This document shows, in pieces, positions 17,229-36,720 of a DNA stretch of 64,000 nucleotides (position 1 is its first letter; every line of letters starts with the position of its first letter). The notes under the pieces are model-generated. The model had not been told where the DNA came from and did no database searches. It saw only the letters and a program-made list of their open reading frames with translations. The stretch covers positions 32,001 to 96,000 of IMG/VR virus record IMGVR_UViG_3300042556_001053; one strand, given 5' to 3'. The stretch is from a virus. The position numbers and the translations under genes were made by a program.

Positions 17229-20200
17229 CTATGCTGAAAGATCTCCAACAACAACCCAAGTGTCTGGATTTGCACGCTTAATAAGCGTTGCACTAGACCA
17301 TTGTGCTCTTAGCTTTAGTCCTGGAGTTCCGTTAATTGTAACTCCTGCGCCTGCAGTAACTGTTGTTTGTCCAGCACCTACTTGTAGGATATCAATCTGA
17401 GTTCCTACTGGGAAAGAAACTGTTGAGTTTGGCTGAACCGTAATGGTGTTTGCACCAGCAACGTTCATTTCAACCATCTTTCCTCTATCAGCAGCAACTA
17501 TTAAATAAGATGCATTTTGTGGACTTGTTGCAAGTTCAGAGAGAACGATGTTTCCTGTTCCAATTTCATCTGTAAGCATTGAAGCAAGGTTAGCAGATGA
17601 TGGAGTTGCAAGGAATGTTGCCACTCCTGATCCAAGTCCTGAGATACCAGTTGCTACTGGAAGACCAGTTGCATTTGTAAGTGTTGCAGATGCTGGTGTT
17701 CCAAGTGCTGCACCGTTAGGAATTGTTACTGTTCCAGTAAATGTAGGTGAAGCAAGAGGAGCACGTGTTGTATCGCTAGCATGTACGTGGTCTGCACGAG
17801 CATACTTTAATGATGTTCCAACTGCAGCTGTTCCATTCATTGCTGGTGTAGCTGCTGATGCCTGACCAACAACGTATGCTGTAGTTGCTACCTGAGTTGT
17901 GTTAGTGTCTGCAGCAGCTGTTGGTGAAGTAGGTGTTCCAGTTAATGCTGGAGAAGCTAAAGGAGCTTTGTTTCCAAGAGCTGTTGTTATTGTAGCTGCA
18001 TAGTTTGCGTCATCTCCAAGTGCTGCAGCAAGTTCATCAAGAGTGTTTAGCGCTGCTGGTGCTCCAGTTGTTAGAACAGCAAGTTCTTGTTGTACGAAGC
18101 TTGTTGTTGCAACTTGTGTTGTATTAGTACCAGTTGCTGCTAGTGGAGCAGTTGGAGTGCCAGTAAGTGCTGGAGAAGCAAGAGGTGCCTTATTATTTAA
18201 CTGTGTCTGAATTGCTGAAGTAACTCCATCAAGGTATCCTGCTTCTGTTTCAGATATTGTTGAAGATATTGCAAGCTTTGTCCAGTCAATTGCTGCTGAT
18301 GCGTTAATGTCAGCATTTACAATTGTACCGTCAAGAATCTTAGCTGATGTAACTGCACCATCTGCCAAGTCACCAGCAACGATAGTTCCATCAAGAATCA
18401 TTCCAGATGTGACAGTTCCTGTTGGAAGAGTAACTGTTCCTGTAAATGTTGGTGAAGCAAGTGAAGCCTTAAGATCAAGAGCTGTTTGGGTTGCTGTTGA
18501 TACTGGCTTATTAGCATCTGATGTATTATCTACAGATCCCAATCCTACCATTGACTTAGTGATACCTGAAACAGTACCTGTGAATGTTGGGTTTGCTAGT
18601 GGAGCCTTAAGATCCAAAGCTACCTGTGTATCATCAGAGATTGGCTTGTCAGCGTCTGATGTATTATCAACGTTACCCAAGCCTACCATTGACTTTGTTA
18701 CACCAGCTACTGTACCTGTAAAGGTTGGTGAATCAATTGGTGCATATGTATCTTCTGCATCTAAAATATCAAGCTTTAGGTTTAGCTCTTCTTGAGTAGC
18801 ACTTGAAACTGGCTTATTAATATCTGATGTATTATCAACATTTGCAAGTCCAACCATGCTCTTTGTTATACCTGCCACTGTTCCAGTAAATGTAGGAGAA
18901 GCAATTGGTGCATAAGTTGTAGCAGCAGTTGATGAGTTAAGCTTAGCATCTAAAGCAGTTTGAGTTAGTGTAGATATTGGCTTGTTAGCATCTGAAGTAT
19001 TGTCAACCTGTGATAATCCAACCATTCCCTTTGTAATACCAGAAACTGTTCCAGTAAATGTAGGTGAAGCTAGAGGAGCCTTAAGATCAAGAGCATTTTG
19101 AGTAGCTGTAGATATTGCCTTATCAGCATCGCTTGTATTTGCAACGTTTCCAAGTCCTACCATTGCCTTTGTTATACCAGCAACTGTTCCTGTGAAAGTT
19201 GGAGAATCAAGTGGTGCCTTAAGATCTAAAGCAGTTTGTGCAGCAGTTGAAATTATCTTATCTAAATCTGATGTATTATCTACAGATCCTAGACCAACCA
19301 TGGCTTTTGTTACACCAGAGACTGTCCCTGTGAAGGTTGGGTTTGCTAGTGGTGCCTTTAAGTCTAATGCAGCTTGTGTTGCAGTTGATGTTGGCTTGTT
19401 AGCATCTGTTGTGTTGTCAACATTGCCTAGTCCAACCATAGCTTTGGTTATACCAGACACTGTGCCTGTAAAGGTTGGTGCTGATAGTGGGGCATAGGTA
19501 TTGCTTGCTAATGTTGCTCCAAGCTTTGAATCAAGCTGACTCTGAACTGGTGCTGTTACACCATTAAGATACTGAAGCTCTGTGTTTGAAACGTCTCCAA
19601 TTGTTGCAGAAGATGCTGTAAATCCAGCTACCGCTAAATCGTCTAGTGAGCCTTGTGTAAAGTCTACTGTTGTTGTTGGCTCTGTTGTAACACCCTTGAA
19701 CAACTTCCACTTAGCATCAGATACGTCTCTTACAAGACCTGAGTGCTTTGCTGAACCATCGTTGTATCCAACTACAAGACCAAGGTCAACTGTATTTGCT
19801 GCATTTTGATGAGCAAGCTGAACCATGTTATCTTCAATTGTTATAGATGTTGCTGATGCTGCAAAATTGGTTCCGTTAACTGTAAGGTCTCCCTCTACAG
19901 TAACATTTCCAGTTGCTATGAGGTCAGGTACTGTTACTTCTCCTGTAAATGTAGGTGAAGCCAAAGGAGACTTTAGGTCAAGTGCTGACTGAGTAGCTGT
20001 TGAAATTGGCTTATCAGCATCTGAAGTATTTTGTGCATTACCAAGTCCTACCATTGCCTTCGTTACACCTGAGACTGTGCCTGTAAATGTAGGTGAAGCA
20101 ATAGGTGCCTTAAGGTCTAAAGCAGCTTGTGTTGCAGTTGAAATCATCTTATCAGAATCTGATGTGTTATCTACAGAACCTAGACCAACCATAGACTTGG

Positions 20201-21230
20201 TTATACCAGAAACTGTTCCTGTAAAGGTTGGGTCTGCTAAAGGAGCTTTTAGATCAAGCTCTGTTTGTGTAGCATCTGAAATTGGCTTGTTAGCGTCTGA
20301 TGTATTATCTACGTTTTCTAGCCCTACCATTGACTTAGTAATACCTGATACAGTACCTGTGAATGTTGGTGCATCTAGTCTTGCAATAGTTGAGTTAACA
20401 GCAAACTGCTCATTATCTATGTCCCACTCTAATCCATCTCCCGCAAGGAGTGGATAATCTCCTGTTGAGTTTGCAATTTGATCATTAACATAGTCTTGTG
20501 TAGCAAGATCTTGTGTATCTGCAATACCGTGTACGTTTGTTGTTTCATCATTGTGTGTTGATACCGCAGAATCTGCGTAAGATTTTGTTGCTACTGTTGA
20601 ATCAATATCAAGGGTAATTGTGTTGGCTATATCGTCATAAGCTTTATCAAGTCCTACTCCAGCTACAATTGCTGTATTTACGGCATCCTGTGCTAGTTCT
20701 GTAATTGCAGATGCATCTGCCTTAAGATTAAGAGCTGTCTGTGTAGCGGTTGAGATAGGCTTGTTAGCGTCTGAAGTATTGTCTACGTTTCCAAGACCAA
20801 CATCTCCCTTTACTATTCCTGATGGAGAAGTAATAGTTTTGTTAGTTAAAGTTTGTGTACCAGTTGTTGTAACAAGAATGCTTGTATCTGCAATACCGTG
20901 AATATTTGTTGTATCTGATTGGTGGTTTGAAAGGTTTGTGGCAATTGTAGTAAAAAATTCGGGATCATCATTAATAGCAGCTGCTAACTCATTAAGGGTA
21001 TTAAGTGCACCAGGGGCACCGTCAATAAGCGCTGTAATTTCTGCAAGAGCACCTTCTCCATCTATGAAGTAGTTGAGGTTAACCCAATGATTAACTCCAT
21101 CACCAATCTTAAACTTATTAGTGTCTAGTTCATATCCAATTTCTCCAGCATTTAGGACTGGTCCTTGGCCTGAGTTAGTAGAAATCCATTGTGCAGCGGT
21201 TCCTTTACGCTGTTGCATTCTTGTTGCCAT
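17229..21230 (-). CDS. Long tail fibre with Mtd/hyaluronidase-like N-terminal domain and 46-aa repeats
   Basis: QQRKGTAAQW...GEIGYELDTNKFKIGDG N-terminus; about 11 copies of KAPLASPTFTGTVSGITKSMVGLGNVDNTSD; APAALNTLDELAAAL motifs; C-terminal WVVVGDL. Confidence 0.85.
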   Translation of the reverse strand: MATRMQQRKGTAAQWISTNSGQGPVLNAGEIGYELDTNKFKIGDGVNHWVNLNYFIDGEGALAEITALIDGAPGALNTLNELAAAINDDPEFFTTIATNLSNHQSDTTNIHGIADTSILVTTTGTQTLTNKTITSPSGIVKGDVGLGNVDNTSDANKPISTATQTALNLKADASAITELAQDAVNTAIVAGVGLDKAYDDIANTITLDIDSTVATKSYADSAVSTHNDETTNVHGIADTQDLATQDYVNDQIANSTGDYPLLAGDGLEWDIDNEQFAVNSTIARLDAPTFTGTVSGITKSMVGLENVDNTSDANKPISDATQTELDLKAPLADPTFTGTVSGITKSMVGLGSVDNTSDSDKMISTATQAALDLKAPIASPTFTGTVSGVTKAMVGLGNAQNTSDADKPISTATQSALDLKSPLASPTFTGEVTVPDLIATGNVTVEGDLTVNGTNFAASATSITIEDNMVQLAHQNAANTVDLGLVVGYNDGSAKHSGLVRDVSDAKWKLFKGVTTEPTTTVDFTQGSLDDLAVAGFTASSATIGDVSNTELQYLNGVTAPVQSQLDSKLGATLASNTYAPLSAPTFTGTVSGITKAMVGLGNVDNTTDANKPTSTATQAALDLKAPLANPTFTGTVSGVTKAMVGLGSVDNTSDLDKIISTAAQTALDLKAPLDSPTFTGTVAGITKAMVGLGNVANTSDADKAISTATQNALDLKAPLASPTFTGTVSGITKGMVGLSQVDNTSDANKPISTLTQTALDAKLNSSTAATTYAPIASPTFTGTVAGITKSMVGLANVDNTSDINKPVSSATQEELNLKLDILDAEDTYAPIDSPTFTGTVAGVTKSMVGLGNVDNTSDADKPISDDTQVALDLKAPLANPTFTGTVSGITKSMVGLGSVDNTSDANKPVSTATQTALDLKASLASPTFTGTVTLPTGTVTSGMILDGTIVAGDLADGAVTSAKILDGTIVNADINASAAIDWTKLAISSTISETEAGYLDGVTSAIQTQLNNKAPLASPALTGTPTAPLAATGTNTTQVATTSFVQQELAVLTTGAPAALNTLDELAAALGDDANYAATITTALGNKAPLASPALTGTPTSPTAAADTNTTQVATTAYVVGQASAATPAMNGTAAVGTSLKYARADHVHASDTTRAPLASPTFTGTVTIPNGAALGTPASATLTNATGLPVATGISGLGSGVATFLATPSSANLASMLTDEIGTGNIVLSELATSPQNASYLIVAADRGKMVEMNVAGANTITVQPNSTVSFPVGTQIDILQVGAGQTTVTAGAGVTINGTPGLKLRAQWSSATLIKRANPDTWVVVGDLSA

Positions 21231-24702: not shown

Positions 24703-25275
24703 ATGAGAAGAGATAAAAAGATTTGGATTGGAATCCTTGCTGCACTTGGGCTTATTGCACCACTAAGTAATGCAGCTAATGCTTTAAGTACTGAAAATAA
24801 CTTGAGTAAACCAGCCATTGCTGAACCTTCAACCGCCAAGGCGGTTTTTTTGGTTTCTAAGCCTAAAAGTCTGGTAGCAGTAAAAAAGAACCTAAATGTT
24901 CTACATAAGTATCAGGATGCTGTTAGTCTTACAGACCGTCAGTTAAAGGAGCTTTTGCATGCCGTTGGTTTTCGTGGCCAAGGCCTAGTAAAGGCTTGGG
25001 CGGTAGCTAAGAAAGAGTCTAATGGCCGTCCACTAGCTTTTAATGGCAATGTTAAGACTGGTGACAACTCTTACGGTATATTTCAAATCAATATGCTTGG
25101 AATGCTAAAAGAAGGTCGTCAAGATAAGTTTGGCCTAAACTTTAATAGTGAGCTCTTAAACCCTGTTATCAATGCACAGGTTGCATATCACATGAGTAAT
25201 GGTGGAAAGAACTGGTCTGCTTGGAAAGGCATGACTCCAAGAACCAAGTCCTGGATGGCTAAGTTCCCTTACTAA
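24703..25275 (+). CDS. Secreted lysozyme-like/lytic transglycosylase (SLT/Rpf-like)
   Basis: Signal-peptide-like N-terminus; AWAVAKKES catalytic Glu; SYGIFQIN; NWSAW; GGAGG RBS. Confidence 0.8.
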   Translation: MRRDKKIWIGILAALGLIAPLSNAANALSTENNLSKPAIAEPSTAKAVFLVSKPKSLVAVKKNLNVLHKYQDAVSLTDRQLKELLHAVGFRGQGLVKAWAVAKKESNGRPLAFNGNVKTGDNSYGIFQINMLGMLKEGRQDKFGLNFNSELLNPVINAQVAYHMSNGGKNWSAWKGMTPRTKSWMAKFPY

Positions 25276-25850
25276 AAAGGCAAATTTTTATTAAGAACTG
25301 TTGGGTGCTCATCATTACCTCTCATAAATATTGTTGAGAAGTATCTAGGCGAATCATCTAAAACTGGAAGAGATCCATGCATAACTTCTCCTCCATGAAG
25401 TAGGGCTGAGCCAGCTTTTGGTTTAATAGTTATTCCTAATTCTGGGTAGTCAAGCTCTCCACCAAGATAGTTATCATTATAATATATTACAAGGCCATAG
25501 CCTAAATAATATCCTTCAGGGGTTGTATCATTATCACGATGTTGCTTTATTTGATCGCCTTTTTTAAACCTAGAAATCTTTAATTCTTGTTCACAAAAAA
25601 AATATGATGGGAATATGTAGTCAACCTTATCAAAAACCAAGCTTCTACACAAATCTTTATGATCATAAAGGAACAAACTTTTATCGTGCCATAAACTATA
25701 TTCATCTGAAATTTCATTAAGATCAGTCCAGCCATCTTGTTTTTTATCAGAAAGTATATTTAAAATTAAAGACAGTTCTTCTTGATTTAAAAAGTTTTCA
25801 ATTTCATAAACATCCTCTGCAAGTTTGTTAATTTTAAAATTGTATTTCAT
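25272..25850 (-). CDS. 2OG-Fe(II) oxygenase, prolyl-4-hydroxylase-like
   Basis: HRD...YYNDNYLGGEL...HG...R. Confidence 0.85.
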   Translation of the reverse strand: MKYNFKINKLAEDVYEIENFLNQEELSLILNILSDKKQDGWTDLNEISDEYSLWHDKSLFLYDHKDLCRSLVFDKVDYIFPSYFFCEQELKISRFKKGDQIKQHRDNDTTPEGYYLGYGLVIYYNDNYLGGELDYPELGITIKPKAGSALLHGGEVMHGSLPVLDDSPRYFSTIFMRGNDEHPTVLNKNLPF

Positions 25851-26519
25851 TTAACCAAACTTACTACTACCTATATGGTTCATTTCAATATGATTAATAT
25901 TAAAATGACTTGGAAGATCTGATACCCACCTAATAGACTCTGCAAGATCTTCAGCAGTCAAGGCTATTTCACGTCTTTCTGTTTGTGTATCAATAGTTCC
26001 TGGGCATATTTCAGTAACCTTAATGCCGTAAGCAGGAAACTCTAAACGCATAGTATCAACTAGTGCCATCATTCCTCTTTTAGCGTTTATATAGTTACCA
26101 CCACTACGGTATGGAACCTTTCCACCCAAGGAACTTATAAATATAATAGTTGGAGACTTAGACCTTTGCATGCATGGAACAAAAAGCTGTGAAAGGTACA
26201 TAGGTCCAGAGACATTTATTTCGTAGGCAATTCTAAAATTATCCATTGTTTCATTTATAAGCATTGTTGGACCTGATCCACCACCAGCATTATTAACTAG
26301 AAGGTCAAGTGTGATATCTTTGTATTTTTCAAAAAAAGACTTAATCTCTTCAGGATTAGTTATGTCCATCTTGTATGTTTCAACATTGTCAGATACAAGC
26401 TCATTGACCTTAGAAAGGTTTCTAGAGACAGCTATAACCTTGTAGCCACTCTCAGACAGAAGTTTTACTGTAGCATAGCCAACGCCCTTGCTAGCCCCTG
26501 TAACTATGGCTGTTTTCAT
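25851..26519 (-). CDS. Short-chain dehydrogenase/reductase
   Basis: TGASKGVG, NNAG, YINAK (YxxxK) and PG motifs. Confidence 0.9.
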   Translation of the reverse strand: MKTAIVTGASKGVGYATVKLLSESGYKVIAVSRNLSKVNELVSDNVETYKMDITNPEEIKSFFEKYKDITLDLLVNNAGGGSGPTMLINETMDNFRIAYEINVSGPMYLSQLFVPCMQRSKSPTIIFISSLGGKVPYRSGGNYINAKRGMMALVDTMRLEFPAYGIKVTEICPGTIDTQTERREIALTAEDLAESIRWVSDLPSHFNINHIEMNHIGSSKFG

Positions 26520-27220
26520 CTGTTGTCCGTAGGCTGTGTACCGCCAGATAAGTCGTTATACCAGTGCATAGGTATCATATATTTAAAACCACTTTTTACA
26601 AGGTGAGCTGTATGATGATAAGGAGGAGAAGATGGGAATATAATTACGCTTCCAGCTTCTGGTTTAATTCCTATTGTTATTCTGTCAGAATCCTTGGACA
26701 AAGAGTAGTCTTCTGATGGCTTTCCATTAATAATAGGGGCATCTGGGGACTCTATGGTAAAAGATAATTCGCCACCTTCGTAGTCATCATTTAAATAAAA
26801 CACTAAAGAGTATCTTAACCTAGTGTCCCCTTCTTGTTGATCAAAGTGTGCACCCATAAAGGTTCCAGCGCTATATTTTTTAATATCAAAGGCTGGTAGA
26901 ATCATTGGCTCTTCCATGTCTCCTTTTGATACTGCATAGTCTTTGCAGACATTATAGAATAAATCAGTTATTGTGTTATATATGTAACTAACAGGGCTAG
27001 CATCTTTATCTGCTATTTTTTCAGAATCAGATGGCTGAACAGTTTTTTGAGATCCATACAAATACATCTCTCCACTGCAGGCTGTCCACTCATTCCATTT
27101 AGTCAAGGATGTGCCATAGTCTTTGCTCTCAGTGGCTTCAATCATTTCTATAAACTTTTTTGGATCTGCTATTGCATTTTTATAGTAATATATGTTTTCT
27201 TCAAGTATTTCTCTTTGCAT
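26516..27220 (-). CDS. 2OG-Fe(II) oxygenase, P4H-like
   Basis: HFD...YLNDDYEGGE...HHT...K. Confidence 0.85.
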   Translation of the reverse strand: MQREILEENIYYYKNAIADPKKFIEMIEATESKDYGTSLTKWNEWTACSGEMYLYGSQKTVQPSDSEKIADKDASPVSYIYNTITDLFYNVCKDYAVSKGDMEEPMILPAFDIKKYSAGTFMGAHFDQQEGDTRLRYSLVFYLNDDYEGGELSFTIESPDAPIINGKPSEDYSLSKDSDRITIGIKPEAGSVIIFPSSPPYHHTAHLVKSGFKYMIPMHWYNDLSGGTQPTDNR

Positions 27221-27963
27221 TACATTATCCCCTTATTTGATTGTTGAGGATACATGCTCATGTTGTTGTGTATCCAATGACCTGGAACCATATACTTAAA
27301 TCCAGACTTTACTGTATGTGCTATATGAAAATATGGTGCTTTTGCAGGAAAAATTATTACGCTATTTGCTTTTGGCTTTATTCCAAAGTCTATTGATTTG
27401 CTTGCCTTGGCTATTTCATAATCTAGGTCTACACCTGGTGCTCCATGAACCCAGCCTTCGGAGCTATTCCATCCACCATCATAGTCTTTAAGCTGAAATG
27501 AAATTTCTCCGCCTTCACAGTCATCATTTAAATACATGACTAAAGAATATCTTAGTGTTTCATCTCCATCTAGTTGATCAAAGTGTGCTCCCATAGATCT
27601 TCCAGTATTATACTTTTTAATATTAAATGTTGGAAACAGATTTGGCTCATCGTAGTCTCCAAGAGATAAAGCATAATCTTTACATACATTATGAAACGTT
27701 TTCATAACAGCATCATAAATATACTTGGTTTTTTCTCCAACCTCGTCTTTTAATTTATTAATTGAATCTAAATTAAAGGTTTTGGTTTCACCATAGATAA
27801 AAGACTTATCGTTAGAAGATGTCCAAGGCTCCCAAACATTTACGTTATGTTCACTTGATGCGTCCAATGCGTCCAGCTCTTTTAAAATTTTCTGAAAAGT
27901 ATCAAAATTTTCTATTGCATCAGTATAATAATAAACCTTTGGATCTAAAATTTCTTTATTCAT
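27220..27963 (-). CDS. 2OG-Fe(II) oxygenase, P4H-like
   Basis: HFD...YLNDDCEGGE...H...K; close paralogue of the previous gene. Confidence 0.85.
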   Translation of the reverse strand: MNKEILDPKVYYYTDAIENFDTFQKILKELDALDASSEHNVNVWEPWTSSNDKSFIYGETKTFNLDSINKLKDEVGEKTKYIYDAVMKTFHNVCKDYALSLGDYDEPNLFPTFNIKKYNTGRSMGAHFDQLDGDETLRYSLVMYLNDDCEGGEISFQLKDYDGGWNSSEGWVHGAPGVDLDYEIAKASKSIDFGIKPKANSVIIFPAKAPYFHIAHTVKSGFKYMVPGHWIHNNMSMYPQQSNKGIM

Positions 27964-27972
27964 TCTGTCTCC

Positions 27973-28632
27973 TTAATATTTATTATTTTCATAGAAGTTT
28001 TTTTCTTTTATAAAACCAACTAGAACATATCTAATTGGTCCCTCACCAACTGGAATTACTCCGTGATGAAAATCGCTAGTTCCTGGGAAAATAAGAAGTG
28101 ATCCCTTTTTAGGTTTTATTTTTAAATCTAAGTTTTTAAAAAACAATTCTCCATCAGCATACTCATCATTAAGATATAAAATGGTTGCATAACGAATTGA
28201 GGGATCTGTGTCTTGATCTGTATGAGCCTTTAGTTCAACTCCAGGCTGCATCCTTTGCAATGTAGCTAGTCCACTTAGCTCTAAATTACTTCCTTCATTA
28301 ACTACGGCTTTATTTAGTCTTTGATATACAGTGTGATAGATTGGATATGCCCTTATTACCAGATTCTTGTCTTCCCAGTTTCTGGTGATCTCAAACTTTC
28401 CTTCAGCAACAAGATTGTCAACGTCATCTCTACCAAATTTTTCCATACAGAATCTTTTAAGGTTGGAAGTATATTCTATAAACCAATCCTCGTCTGGTGT
28501 ATTGTTGATAATCTCTAAATAGTCGTCTATTTCTTCTTGAGAAATAAAATCTTCTAATAAAAGTAGATCTTTTGATATTTCTTCAAATTTTATTCCTAGA
28601 TCAGTTAGCTCTTTTGTAAGATATGCAGACAT
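27973..28632 (-). CDS. 2OG-Fe(II) oxygenase, P4H-like
   Basis: HTD...YLNDEYADGE...HGV...R. Confidence 0.85.
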   Translation of the reverse strand: MSAYLTKELTDLGIKFEEISKDLLLLEDFISQEEIDDYLEIINNTPDEDWFIEYTSNLKRFCMEKFGRDDVDNLVAEGKFEITRNWEDKNLVIRAYPIYHTVYQRLNKAVVNEGSNLELSGLATLQRMQPGVELKAHTDQDTDPSIRYATILYLNDEYADGELFFKNLDLKIKPKKGSLLIFPGTSDFHHGVIPVGEGPIRYVLVGFIKEKNFYENNKY

Positions 28633-28633
28633 A

Positions 28634-29383
28634 CTAGATTACCTCCTCTGGCTTATATTTATTTCCATCTTTATCTAGCTTCCACCCTTGCTTAAGTAGC
28701 TCTTGCCACTCTGCTCTTTCAATCTCTTGCTTTGCTCTTGTTTCTTTCATTTCTTCGGCCCATGCATCTCTTACCTCTTGTGGGTAGGCATCTTCTTCAC
28801 GGTCATCCCAGAAAGATCCTATGGTATATCTTACACCTTTAGTAATTAACGATACTTCGTGCATATTATTAAATCCACCGTCAAATACGGCAAGCATTCC
28901 AACCTTTGGCTGAATTTCTATGTTTTGATCTGGAAATCTTAAAAGACCACCTTCAAAATCATCGTTTAAGTACAGGAATCCTGCATATCTACTTCTTGTA
29001 AATGCTCCAGAATTGCCCTTCTCATCTGTATTATCAGAGTGTACTCTTGCATAAGCACCTGGCTCCCACTTTTGAGTATGATATCCAATTTTAGAAATTA
29101 TTTTTGGGTCTAAGTCATGTACTGATGCAATTGCTTCTGGCATCTTACTTTCAATATCTGAAAAAATAGTTGGAGATAGCCCAGCGTCAATTACCTCTTG
29201 ATCATTGTCTTGTGGTAGCACTGAAGAATATGACTCATAAAATGATATAGGCATCCAAGTTAGTCCGCCGTTATTTGCTTGTGCATCAAGTGCATTAATC
29301 ATCTTTTTGCACTCATCTTCACTAACAAAGTTTTCAAAAATAACAATATCCTTTGTAAGTCTTATCTTATTGTTTAGGTTCAT
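28634..29383 (-). CDS. 2OG-Fe(II) oxygenase, P4H-like
   Basis: HSD...YLNDDFEGG...HEV...R. Confidence 0.85.
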   Translation of the reverse strand: MNLNNKIRLTKDIVIFENFVSEDECKKMINALDAQANNGGLTWMPISFYESYSSVLPQDNDQEVIDAGLSPTIFSDIESKMPEAIASVHDLDPKIISKIGYHTQKWEPGAYARVHSDNTDEKGNSGAFTRSRYAGFLYLNDDFEGGLLRFPDQNIEIQPKVGMLAVFDGGFNNMHEVSLITKGVRYTIGSFWDDREEDAYPQEVRDAWAEEMKETRAKQEIERAEWQELLKQGWKLDKDGNKYKPEEVI

Positions 29384-30261
29384 TTTATTCTCACAGCTCC
29401 TTCTATTTCGTTTCTTTGTGGATGATCTTTTCTAAACTGTTCATGTATTTCTGGTTGCATGCTTGCCCATACATGCTTACCAAACTCTTTTTCTTTTTCA
29501 TACCATTCATCAGACCCTTTTTCATACTTTTGCCAATACATTCTTGACAAAAACTTATTTTTATTGTAAGAAGGCATTACTCCATGTAAGTATGGATCAC
29601 CATTTTCTGTTAAATAATCGGGATGCCCTGATGGAAAAACAAGTAGGTCTCCTGCTTGTGGCTTATATTTAACAAGCTTATCTCCCATTGCAAAGTCAAC
29701 CTCTCCGCCTTCATAGTCGTCATTAAAATAAATAGTGCATGTTATTACAAACTTGTATCCTGGAGCATCTGCCATCTCTCTCTGATAGTCTGAATGATAT
29801 CTCATCCCTACCTTTTCTTCATCAGTGCTTACATGATACTTTCCAACTGTTCCACCAGCCCACTTCCAGGTTGGAACAGTCTGACCACTTTCATCTACAG
29901 ACAAGTCATCTAAATCTACTTCTACCCCATACTTTTTAATATAGTGCTCTGTAGCCAAATAAAAGTTTTCCAACATCTCTATTGCAAAGAGTCGCTGGTC
30001 TTCCTGAGACTGTGTTGTTGTTTTGATATCTTTTAAACCGCCGTACTTATCGTACATAATCAGATTAGGTATTATTGGGCTTAAGTATTCTCCAAAAATA
30101 GACCATTGTGTCCAAGGGCTAAAAAGTCTATCTTCTGAGTTATCCAAAGAATCATTTAAAACTTTGTAAGATTTTGAAATATCTTTAAACATATTTTTAT
30201 AAACTACAATATTTGGGTATATTTCTTCAAACACAATACCATTTTCTTGGGTGTTGTTCAT
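29380..30261 (-). CDS. 2OG-Fe(II) oxygenase, P4H-like
   Basis: HSD...YFNDDYEGGE...HGV...K. Confidence 0.85.
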   Translation of the reverse strand: MNNTQENGIVFEEIYPNIVVYKNMFKDISKSYKVLNDSLDNSEDRLFSPWTQWSIFGEYLSPIIPNLIMYDKYGGLKDIKTTTQSQEDQRLFAIEMLENFYLATEHYIKKYGVEVDLDDLSVDESGQTVPTWKWAGGTVGKYHVSTDEEKVGMRYHSDYQREMADAPGYKFVITCTIYFNDDYEGGEVDFAMGDKLVKYKPQAGDLLVFPSGHPDYLTENGDPYLHGVMPSYNKNKFLSRMYWQKYEKGSDEWYEKEKEFGKHVWASMQPEIHEQFRKDHPQRNEIEGAVRIK

Positions 30262-31145
30262 CTTAATCTAACCCCATTATCTATTGTAATTCTTTGTAGG
30301 TTTTCTTTTTCATATTGACCCTGAATCTTATTCATCTCTGACTGCCAAGAGTCACCAAAAATTAGACTTTTTTCTTTCCACTCATCAGATGAGTCTTCAT
30401 ATACTGTCCAAAACATCCTTATAAAATATTTTTCATTTTCTTTACAAATTTCTGCAGCATGTAGATATACCTCACCATCTTCTGTGGAATATTCTGGATG
30501 TCCTGAAGGAAAAACAACAAAATCTCCAGCTTTTGGTTTATAGTTTATTAGCTTATTGCCAACTGCAAAGTCAATTCCGCCTCCTGAATAATTATCATTT
30601 AGGTATATGGTTGTAGTCAAAACAAACTTATATCCTGGGCCCTTTATAGCTTCTCTAACATAGTCGCTGTGATATCTCATTGCTAATCTTTCAGAGTCTG
30701 GCCCAGCAGCGGTAGAACCAACATAATATTTACACAAAGATGGTCCAGTCCAGTTCCACTTTTGATATTTTTTTCCATCTGATTGAACAGTATCTTTTTC
30801 TTCTTTGTGTATTGGGAAGTTGTGTTTTTCAATATAGTGGTTATTAGCCAAATGAAATGCTTTAATTAATTCAATCATAAAATATCTTTGATCTTCTTGA
30901 ACCTTGCTAGTAGGTTCTATGTCAAAGTTAATTTTAAGATCTGAGACATTTTTATCAAAAGATATTCCAAAGTTTTCTATTTTTTCACCTATAGAGTACC
31001 AGTCATTCCACTTGTCCCATATAGCATCTTCATAATTATTTATTGAATCTTTTGCAATCTGATACATTCTTTCTGGGTCTTCAAATATGTTATTGTAAAC
31101 AACAATATTTGGATAAATTTCTTCAAATGTAAGTTCTGTAGTCAT
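30258..31145 (-). CDS. 2OG-Fe(II) oxygenase, P4H-like
   Basis: HSD...YLNDNYSGG...H...K; paralogue of 29380..30261; start reassigned to MTTELTF. Confidence 0.83.
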   Translation of the reverse strand: MTTELTFEEIYPNIVVYNNIFEDPERMYQIAKDSINNYEDAIWDKWNDWYSIGEKIENFGISFDKNVSDLKINFDIEPTSKVQEDQRYFMIELIKAFHLANNHYIEKHNFPIHKEEKDTVQSDGKKYQKWNWTGPSLCKYYVGSTAAGPDSERLAMRYHSDYVREAIKGPGYKFVLTTTIYLNDNYSGGGIDFAVGNKLINYKPKAGDFVVFPSGHPEYSTEDGEVYLHAAEICKENEKYFIRMFWTVYEDSSDEWKEKSLIFGDSWQSEMNKIQGQYEKENLQRITIDNGVRLR

Positions 31146-31146
31146 A

Positions 31147-31821
31147 TTACGGCTTTCTGTCTCCAGTATGTTCCGTAATTTCCCAAAAAAATGGACATGT
31201 AAATCTAAGCCCACTTTTTATTTCTGTGACCCCATGTATATAGTTCATATCTCCAGGGAAAAAATATGCTGCTCCTTTTTTAGGTTTAAATTGAACTCCT
31301 TGATTTGGAAAGTATAGCTCTCCGCCTTCGTAGTCTTCATTTAAATAAAACAAACTGGAAAGATCATAGTTTGGAAAATCATTTGGCAGTCCTGCGTCTG
31401 GCCCGTCGTGCAGTTCTTTATCAGCGTGTGGTTTTTGGAATTGTCCTGGAAGCCACTTGACAATTGTTGTTCCTGTAGGAATTACTTTTACTTTATAAAA
31501 TTCTTCTACTATTGGTTGCAATCTTTGAAATAGGCCAGCAATGACTGGAGATATCTTTGGATCGTTTTTGTCTAAACTTGGCTGTGTTGCAACTCTATCT
31601 TTCCAATAATCTGAATCGTATACTACTGTACCGTTTTCATTTACATGGCTTTCTGTTACATCCCAAATTGTTAAAGATTTTGCAGCCTTTTCTAAAAACT
31701 CTATTTCTTCTTGTGTCATAAAGTTTTCTAGCTCAACAATCATTTCTTTGCCACTACCAAACCAGCCAGAAGGTGTTATTGATGGCTTTCTAACCACAAC
31801 AGAAGCTTTTATATTATCCAT
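31147..31821 (-). CDS. 2OG-Fe(II) oxygenase, P4H-like
   Basis: HAD...YLNEDYEGGE...HGV...R; leaderless promoter. Confidence 0.85.
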   Translation of the reverse strand: MDNIKASVVVRKPSITPSGWFGSGKEMIVELENFMTQEEIEFLEKAAKSLTIWDVTESHVNENGTVVYDSDYWKDRVATQPSLDKNDPKISPVIAGLFQRLQPIVEEFYKVKVIPTGTTIVKWLPGQFQKPHADKELHDGPDAGLPNDFPNYDLSSLFYLNEDYEGGELYFPNQGVQFKPKKGAAYFFPGDMNYIHGVTEIKSGLRFTCPFFWEITEHTGDRKP

Positions 31822-31823
31822 AA

Positions 31824-32552
31824 TTAGATTATACCATTTCCTTTGCTTGCTGTATTGTCCGTAACAGAAAGACGGATAACCTTTGTTTCGTGAGAGCCTT
31901 TACTTTCACCCTTTTCATTAATTGCATCTCTATACCAATCGGTCCATTCACCAGATTGATTAATTTTTTGTGCAGCTTCTCCATATGACTGATGAGCTTT
32001 TTCTCTACTACGATCTGGATCTGAATAATCAAATATTTGAATTGATGTATTGTCCATTGCTGTCAAAGAGATTGGTACTATAGTTGCAAGAGGTGTACCT
32101 GCTTTTATAGTAATTTCTTTATTCGCAGATCTTGCTTTAATTGCTAATGGGAAACCAGTATCTAGCCAAGATGTACTGATTAAAGAAGACATGGTTTCAA
32201 AGTCTTCACTAAAATAGTTTACTGGGTTAATAGTGAACATGCTTACGTTTTGTTCAGATCTAAAGGTGAGCCCTGTATGTATACTTACTGTAGATTGTCC
32301 CCTGCCAGTATAAGTAAACCCTTCTCCCTCTATAACTTTAACATTTTCTGAACTTGTATCGTTTATTCCATTCCATATAAACTTGATATCCTCTTTAGCT
32401 GAAAGATTCCACCCAACCATGTTTGCTTGGGTTACTGGAAAACATCTGTATGCATGCTTTTCTGGAGTAAGATCCATCCAGTCTCTTTTTATTGACATTG
32501 GAGAAATTATAATTTTTGAATCTGGAAATCTTTCAACAGAGATATTTAACAT
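31824..32552 (-). CDS. DUF6065-like protein
   Basis: RDWMD..PEKHAYRCFPVTQANMVGW signature; IKAGTPL C-terminal motif. Confidence 0.65.
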   Translation of the reverse strand: MLNISVERFPDSKIIISPMSIKRDWMDLTPEKHAYRCFPVTQANMVGWNLSAKEDIKFIWNGINDTSSENVKVIEGEGFTYTGRGQSTVSIHTGLTFRSEQNVSMFTINPVNYFSEDFETMSSLISTSWLDTGFPLAIKARSANKEITIKAGTPLATIVPISLTAMDNTSIQIFDYSDPDRSREKAHQSYGEAAQKINQSGEWTDWYRDAINEKGESKGSHETKVIRLSVTDNTASKGNGII

Positions 32553-33229
32553 TACATTTTATCCTGAGTAAACATATCTGGAGTATGGAACTTTTTGTTA
32601 TAATCCAACATAGTAACAATAGAGTATTTTGTTCCAGATTCTACTGGCATAGCTTGATGAGGATACATGTAGTTTGATGGGAAGATATACAGATCTCCAG
32701 CCTTTGGCTTAATCTTTAAATCTTGCAATCTAAAGTACAACTCGCCACCTTCATAGTCATCATTGATGTATGCAACAAGAGAGACTGTACAATTATAAGA
32801 ATACCCATGGTCATGGTGCTCCATAAAGTGTTGTCCTGGACCATACTTTATAAAGTTAAAGGCTTCCCAATATTTAAGATCCATAATGTTGTAATCTTTT
32901 CTGTAATCTTCAACTGCCTGGAACTGAGCATCATATACATCTTGCCAAAGAGATTGTAGCTTTAAAGATGTTTCGCTTTTATCTAGCTCTATATCTGTTT
33001 TCTTAAACTTAAAATCAACACAGTCTCTGTAGTCTGGAATAAGTTGCTGGTACCCAACGTATGCTGGCATCCAGTGGTATCTGTTACCTTCTGGAGATAA
33101 TTCTCCGTATCCAGCTACTGACCCTAAATTTTCTTCAAGTCTTTCTATTACATTGAAGTCTTTTTTTATTACATCTCTGTAACATACAATTCCATTACCA
33201 AGATTTATTTTTTCTGTCCATGTTTGCAT
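32552..33229 (-). CDS. 2OG-Fe(II) oxygenase, P4H-like
   Basis: HHD...YINDDYEGGE...FPSNYMYPH...K. Confidence 0.87.
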   Translation of the reverse strand: MQTWTEKINLGNGIVCYRDVIKKDFNVIERLEENLGSVAGYGELSPEGNRYHWMPAYVGYQQLIPDYRDCVDFKFKKTDIELDKSETSLKLQSLWQDVYDAQFQAVEDYRKDYNIMDLKYWEAFNFIKYGPGQHFMEHHDHGYSYNCTVSLVAYINDDYEGGELYFRLQDLKIKPKAGDLYIFPSNYMYPHQAMPVESGTKYSIVTMLDYNKKFHTPDMFTQDKM

Positions 33230-33238
33230 AGTTTCCCC

Positions 33239-34015
33239 CTATTTATATTCTCTTCTTGTCCAAACCTTATTTTTATAAACGCCACCATCTGGTTGTCTAT
33301 AAAAATTTGCATTACTCATCATTTTAGCATAAATTTCTGTTGAGCCTATAAAGTTTATTTCATGACTCCAGTCTTCTCTTTTAAAAGGCAGTATCTGTAC
33401 ATATGGTGTTCCTGCTGGAAGCGTTCCTTCCCAACCTTCTGTAATAAAAAATGGAAAAGTACCTAGAAGATGAACACTATCATTGTCAACAACTCCAGTG
33501 GTATTTATAAATGGCAAATCAAAACGATTCATTGGGGTCATGAATAATGCACTGTATCCTTCTGGCAATTCTAGGCCCCAGTCTGGGTACCAGGCAAAAT
33601 GCTCTCTATAATATCCTTTTGGTTGCTCAAATTGTGGCATTGCCATTCTTTTGCTGCAAAAATCTTGATGTCGTGTATCTTCTATTTTTACATCTATAGA
33701 ACCGCTTGCTGTTTTAAAAAAAGTAATATCACAAGGAGTTTTTAATACATATCCTGTTGTAAATGCATCCATGATTGCTGGACATGCTTTCCATGTAGGA
33801 ATCTTTCCATAGTCATCTTTTGTTCCTTCTTTAGGAAATGGACAAATCTGCGGTGTGGCTTTGTAGTATTCACCAATAGGATCTTTGGCAAACCTATCTG
33901 CATCTTTGTACCATTGTGGAATTACTGCTTGTGTTGGTGATGGAACAGAGGGACTATCCTTTGTAACCCATGGCCTATAAGCTGTAAACTTTGCAATATT
34001 TTCTTTTAATGTCAT
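33239..34015 (-). CDS. DUF6065-related protein
   Basis: IPQWYK, TWKACPAIMDAFTTGY, TTGVVDND and PAGTPYVQILPFKREDW motifs. Confidence 0.55.
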   Translation of the reverse strand: MTLKENIAKFTAYRPWVTKDSPSVPSPTQAVIPQWYKDADRFAKDPIGEYYKATPQICPFPKEGTKDDYGKIPTWKACPAIMDAFTTGYVLKTPCDITFFKTASGSIDVKIEDTRHQDFCSKRMAMPQFEQPKGYYREHFAWYPDWGLELPEGYSALFMTPMNRFDLPFINTTGVVDNDSVHLLGTFPFFITEGWEGTLPAGTPYVQILPFKREDWSHEINFIGSTEIYAKMMSNANFYRQPDGGVYKNKVWTRREYK

Positions 34016-34728
34016 TACTTATGACCTAGCTCATTTATATCTGTCATGACTACGACACAATACTTTGTACCGCTCTTCATTGGCAGAGATGCATGCTCAT
34101 ATATGTAGTTTGATGGAAACACTGCAATGTCTCCTACCTTTGGAGTAAGAGTGTAGCCATCTAATCTTGGAAATTGAATCTCTCCGCCTTCATAATCATC
34201 GTTAATATAGATAACTGCAGATACTGTAGCATTATATGCTGGTCCGTGATCAGCATGAATATTAAAGTGTTTTCCTTCGCCTTCATATTTGACAAAGTTG
34301 AATGCTTCATAATAAACAACATTAATTCCCCAGTATCTTGCATAATCATCTATACAAAGCTTTAGCTTTTCGTATATCTCCTGATGTAAATCAATGAGCT
34401 CACTATTGAAAGGATCTCTTGGTCCCAAATTTTCCTGCTTGTATTTAAAGTCAACGCAATCTCTTGCTCGTTTAATTGGTGTAGCAGAGTTTGTAACTGT
34501 TGCTTCAGACCATCTAAACTTTTTTGTTCCGTCTAAGTTAGATTCAAGTGTGTTTATATATCTTTTTGAATCTTCTAAAGAAAACACATTTCTATATATG
34601 TTCAAACCAAGACCTGGGTTCTCTATTACAATATTGTGCTCAGGTATAGCCCTATCAACCTTGTTTGTTATTGTCTCTGATCTGTCCTTGGTAAACCATG
34701 GGTTTTCATTTTCATCATAAATTTCCAT
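34015..34728 (-). CDS. 2OG-Fe(II) oxygenase, P4H-like
   Basis: HAD...YINDDYEGGE...FPSNYIYEH...K; paralogue of 32552..33229. Confidence 0.87.
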   Translation of the reverse strand: MEIYDENENPWFTKDRSETITNKVDRAIPEHNIVIENPGLGLNIYRNVFSLEDSKRYINTLESNLDGTKKFRWSEATVTNSATPIKRARDCVDFKYKQENLGPRDPFNSELIDLHQEIYEKLKLCIDDYARYWGINVVYYEAFNFVKYEGEGKHFNIHADHGPAYNATVSAVIYINDDYEGGEIQFPRLDGYTLTPKVGDIAVFPSNYIYEHASLPMKSGTKYCVVVMTDINELGHK

Positions 34729-34883
34729 ATATATCCCCTTTTTATTTTATTATACACTATCTTTATTTTTTTGTAAAACAATTTAAATATTATTGCAAAC
34801 CTTTTGCAACATATAAGATCTAGCACTCATAAAAACACAAAAGGCCAAACAATGTTGGCCAATTGTATTACTGCTTTTTTATT

Positions 34884-35960
34884 TTATACTACACCTGGTA
34901 GTGTGAAGTATGGGAAGAACGGTCCAACTCCAAACCCTGGGAAGAACGGTGGGAAGAATGGGAAGAACGGGAAGAATGGGAAGAACGGTGGGAAGAACGG
35001 GAAGAATGGGAAGAACGGGAAGAACGGTGGGAAGAATGGGAAGAACGGGAAGAATGGGAAGAACGGTGGGAAGAATGGGAAGAACGGGAAGAATGGGAAG
35101 AACGGTGGGAAGAACGGGAAGAATGGGAAGAACGGGAAGAAAGGTGGGAAGAATGGAGGGAAGAATGGGAAGAAAGGAGGGAAGAATGGAGGGAAGAACG
35201 GTGGGAAGAATGGGAAGAACGGTGGGAAAAATGGCGGGAAGAATGGAGGAAAGAATGGGAAGAACGGAGGAAAGAACGGTGGGAAAAATGGAGGGAAGAA
35301 AGGAAAGAATGGAAAGAATGGTGGAAAGAATGGTCCTAATGTAACAACAACAGAGTTAGAGTTTGAAGATACTGGAGATGATCCATTTGCATTTGTTGCA
35401 ATAACTGTATATGTATATGTTCCTGCTGTTGTTTCTGTAATAGTAAGTGGGGTTCCTGTGCCAGTTGCTGTTTTTCCAGAAGTAGAAGTGACTGTATAGT
35501 TTGGAGTAGTTAAAGCTGAGTTTCCAATTTGTGCAGATGTAAGGTTTGTAAAAGGAATAGTTACAATTCCAGTTGTTCCATTAACTGATGCTGTTCCAAT
35601 TGTTACCTGAGCTGGCTTAGATGTTGGGACTACAGCATTACTTGCTGAAGAAGCTGCAGAAACTCCGATTGCATTTGTTGCGGTAACGGTAAAAGTATAA
35701 TTTGCTGGAGTTCCACTTGTTGACAAACCTGTTATAACTATTGGAGAAGATGATCCAGTTCCTGTATGTCCACCAGATGAGGTTACTGTATATCCTGTAA
35801 TAGGCATCTTGCCATTATAAGAAGGGGCTGAAAAAGATACAGAAACCTGACCGCTATTAAATGTGCGTCCTGATCCTTGGTCTGTAGCTGTGCCAATTAC
35901 TGGTGCGTTTGGAACTGACTTCTTTGATGAATCTGTTGTACCAGTATTTTTTGGGCTCAT
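34884..35960 (-). CDS. Two fibronectin type III-like domains plus a 132-aa Pro/Phe-only C-terminal tract
   Basis: PNAP...VSFSAP..NG..PITGYTVT...YTFTVTATN FN3 pattern twice; TGGTACAAT promoter 7 nt before the ATG. Confidence 0.85.
   Translation of the reverse strand: MSPKNTGTTDSSKKSVPNAPVIGTATDQGSGRTFNSGQVSVSFSAPSYNGKMPITGYTVTSSGGHTGTGSSSPIVITGLSTSGTPANYTFTVTATNAIGVSAASSASNAVVPTSKPAQVTIGTASVNGTTGIVTIPFTNLTSAQIGNSALTTPNYTVTSTSGKTATGTGTPLTITETTAGTYTYTVIATNANGSSPVSSNSNSVVVTLGPFFPPFFPFFPFFPPFFPPFFPPFFPFFPPFFPPFFPPFFPFFPPFFPPFFPPFFPFFPPFFPPFFPFFPFFPFFPPFFPFFPFFPFFPPFFPFFPFFPFFPPFFPFFPFFPFFPPFFPFFPFFPFFPPFFPGFGVGPFFPYFTLPGVV
34938..35333 (-). repeat. Tandem repeat encoding 38 PFF/PPFF units, with 39-nt higher-order units in the distal part
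   Basis: Plus strand shows repeated GGGAAGAAY/GGTGGGAAGAAY units. Confidence 0.95.
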
Positions 35961-36000: not shown

Positions 36001-36720
36001 TTATCTAACAGATATATAAATAGATTTAGCAACCATTGAGGCATCATTATCTGTCAATATTTGTGGTAGTCCGCCATAGTTTCTAACCATGTCATTTTCT
36101 ATAAAAAAGGTGTGCTCTAATGACATGTCATATGAAAACTGATACTTTAGGTTTGCAGCAAAGGTAGTAGGCCAAAAGTCAGACTCTGGTATGTAAGTTC
36201 TAAACCAAACTTCAGTGTTGTTGGTAAGGGTAGTCAAAATAATATCATAACGGACTGTTACAATTGAGCCAACCTTTAGTGCTTTAAGGTTTATTTTTTG
36301 TGATTGTGAGTTATATAATGAAACGTTATTTTCTGGTAAATAAAGCTCGTTATTTTTACCCCTACAGTCAAAGCTAAAGCTAACCCAGCCGTCATTTCCT
36401 TTTGTAGCACCAAGAGTAATATTTTTTTGATCTTTGTTTGTATAAAGAGCCCAACCAGTTCTTTGACCTGATGGAGACAAACTGCTTTCTCCTGCTATTC
36501 CATCCCTACCGTTTTTTCCATCTTTACCAGGTTTTCCAGGTTCTCCCTGTGGTCCTTGTTTGCCTTCTGGTCCAGAATCGCCTTTATCACCCTTTGGGCC
36601 CTGTTCTCCTTGTGGTCCAGGAACAGCTATGAAAGAAACTGATTGCTCAAGTTGATAAGAGTTGTTTACATTGTCTGAATATTTTTTAGACTTCCCTGGA
36701 AAATCCATGCTAGTTGACAT
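36001..36720 (-). CDS. Collagen-like (Gly-X-Y) repeat virion protein
   Basis: GPQGEQGPKGDKGDSGPEGKQGPQGEPGKPGKDGKNGRDGIAG followed by a globular domain. Confidence 0.8.
   Translation of the reverse strand: MSTSMDFPGKSKKYSDNVNNSYQLEQSVSFIAVPGPQGEQGPKGDKGDSGPEGKQGPQGEPGKPGKDGKNGRDGIAGESSLSPSGQRTGWALYTNKDQKNITLGATKGNDGWVSFSFDCRGKNNELYLPENNVSLYNSQSQKINLKALKVGSIVTVRYDIILTTLTNNTEVWFRTYIPESDFWPTTFAANLKYQFSYDMSLEHTFFIENDMVRNYGGLPQILTDNDASMVAKSIYISVR

Follow-up and report, generated by a model that had tools for sequence, protein, structure and literature searches.

The stretch of DNA considered here, the window, comprises 64,000 nucleotides (positions 32,001 to 96,000) of the virus record IMGVR_UViG_3300042556_001053, a 114-kb IMG/VR record rated complete. 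On its minus strand lies a gene whose 358-residue product joins two fibronectin type III (Fn3) domains to an uninterrupted run of 132 residues made of proline and phenylalanine alone, and behind this gene begins an array of genes for oxygenases of the prolyl 4-hydroxylase (P4H) type. The portal of the virus is 47% identical to portals of 130-kb Streptomyces siphophages, and a WhiB gene is encoded; the sequence points most likely to a phage of low-GC freshwater actinobacteria. The gene and its parts are laid out as follows.

34884–35960, minus strand: gene for the 358-residue Fn3-Fn3-(Pro/Phe)132 protein, stop codon included (open reading frame list and translation; the start agrees with that of homologues in alignment)
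35334–35960, minus strand: first 209 residues, made up of a conserved N-terminal peptide followed by two beta-sandwich domains of the Fn3 type (Pfam, AlphaFold2, Foldseek)
34938–35333, minus strand: Pro/Phe tract, residues 210–341 (translation; no secondary-structure element by DSSP)
35136–35333, minus strand: proximal 66 residues of the tract, 3-4-3, three PFF-PPFF-PPFF-PPFF 15-mers, 3-4-4, with irregular synonymous codons (translation)
34941–35135, minus strand: distal array, five units of 39 nt that each encode (PFF)3-PPFF and occur in two versions (sequence comparison of the units)
34887–34937, minus strand: 17-residue C-terminal tail GFGVGPFFPYFTLPGVV (translation)

The tract contains 76 Phe and 56 Pro, arranged as 38 Phe-Phe dyads that divide into 21 PFF and 17 PPFF units. 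Written as unit lengths from the N- to the C-terminus, the order is 3-4-3, three 15-mers (3-4-4-4), 3-4-4, five 13-mers (3-3-3-4) and a last Pro. An earlier note on this DNA, made from the sequence alone, had described the position, length, dyad and unit counts and periodicity of the tract, and the translation bears out every count. In the proximal 198 nt the codons CCA, CCG and CCT, and likewise TTC and TTT, are mixed without regular order. The distal units exist in two versions, A and B, which differ at three synonymous sites and follow one another as A B B A B; their copy number comes from a short-read metagenome assembly, in which 39-nt units may be miscounted. Across the span of the tract, Tandem Repeats Finder detects periods of 9, 12, 21 and 78. 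Because proline and phenylalanine each account for only about 4% of residues genome-wide, a two-letter run of this length is impossible by chance. The tract is free of glycine and so is no Gly-X-Y collagen repeat; consisting of Pro and Phe alone, with proline runs of no more than two, it is also distinct from the Ser-Pro(3-5) repeats of extensins and other hydroxyproline-rich glycoproteins (HRGPs).

The folded part of the protein can be placed with some precision. Its Pfam fn3 match (22 bits, E 1.9e-4) falls just under the 25-bit cut-off, and AlphaFold2 models it with a predicted local distance difference test score (pLDDT) above 90 as an all-beta structure with strands from residue 21 to residue 206. 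Foldseek searches of BFVD return ‘Fibronectin type III’ proteins of uncultured phages at E 1e-17 and minor tail proteins of actinophages at E ~1e-8, and homologues of the protein, of which there are 922, carry PF00041. Membership of the Fn3 family is thus indicated by a sub-cut-off profile match and by fold. The minor tail proteins of Microbacterium, Arthrobacter, Rhodococcus and Streptomyces phages share with it the tandem arrangement of Fn3 domains and similar predicted folds; unlike the fold match, a sequence match to the 358-residue protein is absent from these cultured actinophages, tblastn against 50,697 cultured or deposited phage records with the low-complexity filter on having returned nothing at E ≤1e-3. 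Megablast of the 5-kb region against cultured phages likewise gave no match. In the AlphaFold2 model of the whole protein the tract is a low-confidence coil (pLDDT 43–61) to which no fold can be assigned, and a search of the ESM Atlas with residues 200–358 produced no usable look-alike. The protein ends 17 residues past the tract, with no Hint domain of the kind found in some relatives, and similar ends occur in L124 and L125 (...FFPYFTLPGV[VW]) and in P0020 (...FFPYFTIPGAV). An extended -10-like element, TGTATAAT, is found 21 nt before the start codon of the gene.

The Pro/Phe frame is the translated one. This follows from the in-frame continuation of the two-Fn3 part, unbroken, into the tract; from the presence of a second (PPFF)n gene in the same genome; from the variation within the tract, all of which is silent in the Pro/Phe frame; and from indels that are, without exception, multiples of three. 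The second gene (G000:C1 ~18680–20540; L002 1224..3086, minus strand) lies ~12.8 kb before the start of the window and encodes a fibre-like protein of at least 620 residues, in which 78 residues of (PPFF)n blocks stand between folded domains: three blocks of 4, 5 and 10 FF pairs are separated by SAS and GAT, and an Fn3-like domain comes last. The opposite strand is also open across the repeat, with plus-strand frames at 34804–35499 and 34910–35344 that would encode Gly-Lys-Asn and Met-Gly-Arg-Thr repeats. Both are shadows of the repeat and carry a risk of mis-annotation by gene callers; in the Gly-Lys-Asn frame the base variation of the tract would swap residues between N and K.

Comparison with relatives shows that the purity of the tract is maintained by selection on the protein. 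When tract and tail were aligned as DNA, without conditioning on the protein, the differences from L124, whose Fn3 DNA is 85% identical, numbered 4, 7 and 28 at codon positions 1, 2 and 3, and those from L125 numbered 3, 7 and 32. In the Fn3 part the corresponding differences at positions 1 and 2 together against position 3 were 50 against 51 (L124) and 85 against 67 (L125), giving Fisher p values of 0.024 and 2e-4 for tract plus tail against the Fn3 part. Because differences in the tract gather at third positions relative to the Fn3 part, it is under tighter protein-level constraint than the folded domains themselves. With the more distant L130, one of four comparisons, the third-position excess was not significant (p = 0.36). 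The claim of the earlier note that the protein is under selection is upheld by the synonymous character of all variation within the tract, by the third-position excess against L124 and L125, which is also the comparison of synonymous and non-synonymous change in homologous tracts that the note had proposed, and by the indel lengths. Homologues with a frameshifted tract, which would have spoken against such selection, did not appear: the frame is kept in at least 175 distinct open reading frames, and no indel departs from multiples of three.

Codon use within the tract departs strongly from that of the genome. Phenylalanine is encoded by TTC in 69 of 76 cases (91%, against 19% genome-wide; p = 5e-39), and proline by CCG in 17 of 56 (30%, against 2%; p = 2e-13) and never by CCC; across the family TTC reaches 87% and CCC 1.4%. 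The phage encodes neither a tRNA-Pro nor a tRNA-Phe, so its tRNAs offer no explanation for the bias. The longest homopolymer runs in the tract are five T and three C, and the codon choice might reflect avoidance of slippery homopolymers at sites where T6 and C6 runs would otherwise arise.

The length of the tract is evolutionarily labile, changing, as the relatives indicate with high probability, by whole units of 13–15 residues. In L122 and L123, contigs from other samples whose Fn3 DNA is 99.2–99.5% identical to that of the window, only 1 and 3 of the 198 proximal tract bases differ; these strains nevertheless carry 4 and 6 distal 13-mers against 5 in the window, with tracts of 119 and 145 against 132 residues, and in their distal units CCA and CCG are swapped in a pattern peculiar to each strain. 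The recent expansion supposed from the near-identity of these units, or an equivalent contraction, is therefore evident from strains 99% identical in the Fn3 part that have 4, 5 or 6 copies. The same layout persists in the diverged L124 and L125, which have fewer 15-mers and 3 and 2 13-mers, respectively.

The tract belongs to a large and unnamed family of phage P-P-x-F repeats, which we define by a row of four or more P{1,2}-x-F units that share a reading frame with a folded N-terminal domain; in the 358-residue protein, 38 such units follow the two Fn3 domains. A degenerate DNA pattern for PFF-(PPFF)3 identified at least 119 viral contigs, and across all fetched viral loci there are at least 175 distinct tract-bearing open reading frames with 2961 units. 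Tract lengths among the 175 range from 14 to 147 residues, with 17 frames reaching 100 or more. Phe closes 98.5% of the units, and the residue before it is Phe in 81% and Tyr in 11%, followed by Ser, Val, His and Arg, although the share of Phe is inflated by the part of the set that was found with a Phe-only pattern; units of the PP type outnumber those of the P type two to one. The commonest architecture is that of the protein described here, in which a conserved N-terminal peptide and two Fn3 domains precede a tract beginning near residue 200 (67 of the 120 Fn3 homologues listed), and other members have a small unrelated N-terminal domain instead. After the tract the relatives vary, ending in a few residues that close with Phe-Lys, in a tail like that of the window, in a Cys-rich knot, in a Hint/intein-like domain or in further Fn3 domains.

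Two of these C-terminal variants deserve description. Hint/intein-like caps occur in L032 (6071–7390), L063 (8066–9304), L116 (2603–3907), L008, L042, L083 and L099; the cap begins with Cys right behind the tract and ends in His-Asn, and in L032, L063 and L116 it gives weak matches, below cut-off, to Hint_2, Intein_splicing or PT-HINT of Pfam. Self-cleavage of such a cap would leave the tract as a free or ligated C-terminus. A Cys-rich module of ~25–60 residues follows the tract in L017, L023, L028, L050, L096, L110, P0004, P0037 and P0039 and may be a disulfide knot at the distal tip.

Presence of the repeat in cellular genomes was considered and rejected. A search of 185,579 prokaryote genomes gave 13 matches to the pattern: about seven are short stretches that arose by chance or lie in another frame, and about six are genuine, all on phage-like contigs of metagenome-assembled genomes (MAGs). 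The six contigs (L204, L207, L209, L210, L211 and L215) are labelled Verrucomicrobiales, Gammaproteobacteria, Acidibacter and Cyclobacteriaceae, and their proteins of ~90–170 residues comprise a conserved ‘...IDYT..S’ domain, the tract and a PPxFK end; oxygenases are nearby in four (L204, L207, L210 and L215), three of which also have DUF6065. These are probably phage contigs binned into bacterial MAGs, and their labels are weak evidence of host. The P-P-x-F module is essentially viral. The literature searched contains no mention of phage PPFF tracts, and in the freshwater actinophage literature searched there is no mention of oxygenases, Fn3 or proline.

On the strand of the tract gene, a spacer of 155 nt separates its stop codon from the first of a long series of enzyme genes, and a fibre-like gene precedes it.

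36001–36720, minus strand: collagen-repeat tail-fibre-like gene, 40 nt upstream of the tract gene (Pfam Collagen E 1.4e-8; PHROG tail-fibre families)
34843–34860, minus strand: terminator-like hairpin with T-rich tail (GGCCAA-loop-TTGGCC), 24 nt past the stop codon of the tract gene (consensus scan; RNA fold −20.5 kcal/mol, z −2.15)
34749–34777, minus strand: promoter-like site TTTACA-17-TATAAT, 11 of 12 matches, ending 21 nt before the ATG of the first oxygenase gene (consensus match)
25272–34728, minus strand: 13 tightly packed genes, encoding ten PF13640 2-oxoglutarate- and Fe(II)-dependent (2OG-Fe(II)) oxygenases, two DUF6065 proteins and one SDR (Pfam)
33239–34015 and 31824–32552, minus strand: the DUF6065 genes, alternating with oxygenases (Pfam; 33239–34015 is without a Pfam match and was identified by PHROG, our own hidden Markov model (HMM) and alignment)

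All ten oxygenases of the array match PF13640, so that the genome encodes its own enzymes of the P4H family, as the chlorovirus PBCV-1 does. The solved chains closest to the first of them are the Bacillus anthracis prolyl 4-hydroxylase (3ITQ/5HV0), the collagen lysyl hydroxylase LH3 and prolyl 3-hydroxylase 1 (P3H1), with weak E values from 4e-4; the nearest structures are thus prolyl and lysyl hydroxylases that act on collagen-like substrates. Among the 13 array genes Pfam finds no protease, cyclase, leader-recognition or export gene and no tryptophan halogenase; glycosyltransferase and tyrosinase genes were not seen here either. The DUF6065 proteins, for which no paper was found in the literature searched, have one invariant cysteine (Cys78) in their alignment, and their AlphaFold2 model adopts a dUTPase fold (VIA-align: eleven dUTPases with Z 7.9–9.4 over 108–123 aligned residues); Foldseek of the model against the PDB gave nothing at E ≤0.001. 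In deposited phage genomes, relatives at E ≤1e-5 come only from haloarchaeal tailed viruses (49 records, e.g. L200, Haloarcula virus HCTV-8, MZ334507.1 27143–27976), where DUF6065 is a lone gene near tail-fibre and adhesin genes and beside ribonucleotide reductase, a setting that gives no further functional clue.

The succession of tract gene and oxygenases is conserved well beyond this genome. HMMs built from the ten oxygenases and two DUF6065 proteins of the window, searched against the 119 loci listed from the pattern (986 kb), gave 312 oxygenase matches in 85 loci and DUF6065 in 64. Of 70 C-terminal-tract genes flanked by at least 2.5 kb, 64 have an oxygenase no more than 2.5 kb downstream, whereas upstream none of 50 has one (p = 2e-27). 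The association extends across architectures: 28 of 29 genes whose N-terminus is of the Fn3 type show it, as do 15 of 17 that begin with a small domain, 4 of 5 with a Hint cap and 17 of 19 cut at the 5' end. In the reverse direction, a tract frame stands upstream on the same strand in 71 of 78 loci with DUF6065 (the 78 being drawn from the best 80 among 494 viral stretches encoding a relative), and in the remaining 7 the match is situated no further than ~1.5 kb from the start of the contig. The collagen-like gene was tried as a constant upstream partner and discarded, as it is present in only 21 of 95 loci. A further repeat-rich fibre gene is found a few kb downstream of the oxygenase array (17229–21230, minus strand); in its giant product of 1333 residues, many repeated stretches give matches to 40 PHROG families of tail-fibre, minor-tail and collagen-like type.

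We hold with high confidence the part of this account that comprises the reading frame, the family, a pure Pro/Phe sequence kept by purifying selection, the codon pattern, the unit-wise change of length and the fixed gene order. Beyond it, the explanation that we favour, at a probability of roughly 0.55, is that the tract is the translated C-terminal part of a virion-appendage protein, from the minor-tail or fibre region, of an uncultured freshwater actinophage, and that the oxygenases modify it. With 42% proline and each Phe-Phe pair followed by Pro, helices and sheets are hardly possible, and the chain would probably adopt an extended, polyproline-II-like rod, up to ~40 nm long at 0.31 nm per residue. 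Polyproline-II is the conformation bound by P4H-type enzymes in P4H–peptide complexes, and such enzymes hydroxylate collagen and plant extensins. The conserved N-terminal peptide and the Fn3 domains would hold the protein on the tail region of the virion, while the tract and the variable C-terminal end would project outward; in phage fibres generally it is the variable C-terminal end that faces outward. The oxygenases would hydroxylate the prolines of the tract, and possibly other carbons. Hydroxylation would add hydrogen-bonding groups to an extremely hydrophobic and otherwise insoluble aromatic polymer, yielding a stiff or sticky stalk. As collagen-type hydroxylase genes follow such genes in 64 of 70 cases, the tract is the likeliest candidate substrate of the adjoining oxygenases, and since the pairing survives changes of both the N-terminal domain and the C-terminal cap, we argue for a functional link between tract and enzymes. 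The earlier note had suggested that the tract would need modification; the presence of P4H-type oxygenase genes behind such genes in nearly all related contigs speaks for this, while hydroxylation itself is read from gene context.

A number of observations weigh against this explanation. The hairpin and the promoter-like site between the tract gene and the array mean that the sequence gives adjacency rather than co-transcription, and the two may be separate transcription units; a stronger message for the structural gene followed by a weaker one for the enzymes would fit, though this is speculation. AlphaFold2 gives the tract no defined structure, and its rod geometry is something that we infer. 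Ten paralogous enzymes exceed the obvious need of a two-letter substrate. Where the tract is internal, only 4 of 9 genes have an oxygenase nearby (the enzymes are elsewhere on 3 of 5 such contigs, and the two contigs without them are fragments rated 26–31% complete), and the second tract gene of this genome is distant from the array (~48 kb) with no oxygenase adjoining. Part of the synteny may be inherited gene order, since most of the loci are from related lake phages. Finally, an array of the same kind occurs in the Synechococcus cyanophage Syn9 without any Pro/Phe gene, behind Gly-rich fibre genes, and those who described it proposed small-molecule biosynthesis (PMC2938197).

The last comparison calls for some detail, because the array described here is a relative of that in Syn9 and thereby part of a known but unexplained phage gene set. 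The tandem dioxygenases of Syn9 (gp41–gp54) were proposed by Iyer, Abhiman, de Souza and Aravind in 2010 to serve small-molecule synthesis, with no protein substrate named (PMC2938197). Both arrays contain numerous classical 2OG-Fe(II) dioxygenases in tandem, joined by a dUTPase-fold protein in which a cysteine is conserved, the DUF6065 alignment being homologous to Syn9 gp43 (hhalign probability 96%, E 2.4e-9), and both lie just behind low-complexity genes of the fibre type. They differ in that Syn9 has tryptophan halogenases and a JmjC enzyme, no Pro/Phe-tract gene and Gly-rich genes upstream, whereas here a Pro/Phe gene heads the array and an SDR is included. In Syn9 (L202, NC_008296.2 28855–32327) the products of gp36, gp38 and gp39, which precede the array, are extremely Gly-rich and fibre-like, and gp39, as annotated, carries inside it a near-duplicate of its own N-terminal region. 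It is mainly because of the missing Pro/Phe gene in Syn9 and the small-molecule proposal that we keep the claim of the tract as substrate at about even odds.

Closer parallels for the proposed substrate role come from outside the bacteriophages. Eriksson et al. are said to have shown biochemically in 1999 (in J Biol Chem) that the prolyl 4-hydroxylase of PBCV-1 hydroxylates the virus's own Pro-rich repeats, e.g. (Pro-Ala-Pro-Lys)n. The likeness is that a single virus encodes both a P4H-type enzyme and proline-rich repeat proteins, although in our case the substrate role is deduced from the genes; PBCV-1, a eukaryotic virus, also differs in having one enzyme against ten here, and charged hydrophilic repeats against pure Pro/Phe. 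Plant extensins and other HRGPs, as well as mussel foot protein 1, are long proline-rich repeats that form extended polyproline-II rods and function through prolyl hydroxylation. The tract resembles them as a long proline-rich tandem repeat, and the mussel repeat even has aromatic residues flanking Pro-Pro; extensins are built on Ser-Pro4, however, and mussel protein 1 on a Lys/Tyr-rich decapeptide, so that neither is a two-letter Pro/Phe sequence, and there is no sequence homology to the tract.

Could the tract act unmodified? It might be a structural spacer or hydrophobic anchor, either a linker of the Pro-Thr or TonB type or a greasy tail that sticks to the virion, the host envelope or particles, with the oxygenases acting on the collagen-like fibre, other virion proteins, host proteins or a small molecule. 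We consider this unlikely on balance, while acknowledging what it accommodates: the second gene and other large fibre proteins hold the tract between folded domains in a linker-like position without adjoining enzymes, the hairpin and promoter-like site part the tract gene from the array, Syn9 does without a Pro/Phe gene, Iyer et al. proposed secondary-metabolite roles for such arrays (PMC2938197), and a collagen-repeat gene, the classical type of P4H substrate, with genuine Gly-X-Y repeats, lies just upstream. The order of tract followed by oxygenases, recurring across N-terminal architectures (64 of 70) and in the reverse test (71 of 78), is difficult to reconcile with it; collagen, present upstream in 21 of 95 loci, is no constant partner, and a water-exposed, unmodified chain of 132 Pro and Phe residues would be physically awkward. 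An improbable alternative is a self-assembling fibre core, in which several chains, hydroxylated or not, would pack through aromatic zippers of Phe-Phe pairs to form a multimeric, rigid rod or a fibre of amyloid-like kind, the oxygenases merely tuning its stiffness. The earlier note had drawn the parallel to Pro-Phe-Phe peptides, for which self-assembly data do exist: the synthetic tripeptides Pro-Phe-Phe as well as Hyp-Phe-Phe form helical-like crystals, hydroxylation of the proline changes their assembly properties, and the moduli measured for fibrils are 60–90 GPa (PMC8113556). These data concern free tripeptides with charged termini, whereas the tract shares their PFF chemistry as a covalent polymer that mixes PFF and PPFF and whose prolines have no amide hydrogens, so the parallel does not carry over. 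Phage fibres are usually multimers, and the 13- and 15-residue super-periods are kept in the diverged L124 and L125; relatives with a pure period-4 PPFF or PPYF repeat nonetheless require no single super-period, and the monomer model is without confident structure in the tract.

It is very improbable that the tract is a precursor of small Pro-Phe peptides of the orbitide-like, ribosomally synthesized and post-translationally modified kind, cut from the repeat and tailored by the oxygenases, with the Hint domains of relatives releasing the polymer. Cyclolinopeptide A and cyclic peptides related to it do contain PPFF (PMC9266943), clusters with several oxygenases are characteristic of peptide natural products, and a Hint/intein-like domain stands right behind the tract in some relatives. 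The parallel to antamanide and cyclolinopeptide that the earlier note had raised is nevertheless a coincidence of sequence; processing enzymes (protease, cyclase, leader recognition, export) are missing from the 13-gene array by Pfam. Nor are there spacer or recognition residues between the tract units, as a multi-core precursor would have; two Fn3 domains with minor-tail-like folds are no leader peptide, and the tract also occurs within large fibre proteins. The idea that the tract arose as an artefact of assembly, or is a simple repeat that is non-coding or read in the wrong frame, is largely refuted except for the exact number of distal copies (4, 5 or 6). A short-read metagenome assembly with near-identical, miscountable 39-nt units and with both other frames open on the opposite strand might invite it, and yet independent assemblies from other samples reproduce the gene with 1–3 differences in the proximal 198 nt and with their own distal synonymous patterns, the frame survives throughout the family with every indel a multiple of three, and the internal tract of L002 is flanked in frame by domains.

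Setting these alternatives against the favoured reading of an oxygenase-modified appendage tract, what is known in kind is a proline-rich structural repeat with virus-encoded hydroxylases, and what is new is the pure Pro/Phe composition. The literature and databases searched yielded no account of more than 100 consecutive residues of Pro and Phe alone in a natural protein, and as far as these searches reach the composition is unprecedented. More tentatively, at somewhat less than an even chance, we suggest a new biopolymer: an encoded two-letter chain of up to ~150 residues, which 2OG oxygenases, up to a dozen in number and each perhaps with a position or carbon of its own, would oxidise to give an appendage a hydroxylated stalk, stiff or adhesive, at its tip.

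In hundreds of phages the purity of a Pro/Phe polymer is upheld by selection. Few unexplained gene sets in aquatic phages are as abundant as tandem 2OG-Fe(II) oxygenase arrays, and a constant, adjoining and chemically extreme candidate substrate makes their function directly testable. If the tract is indeed modified by these enzymes, it would be the first protein substrate for the phage tandem oxygenase arrays known since Syn9, and would join collagen, extensin and mussel glue in the small set of structural materials based on hydroxyproline. The variable C-terminal ends, whether a short tail, a Cys-rich knot or a Hint domain, together with the strain-level changes of length, suggest a role at the host-contact end of the appendage, which may concern the phages of abundant lake actinobacteria.

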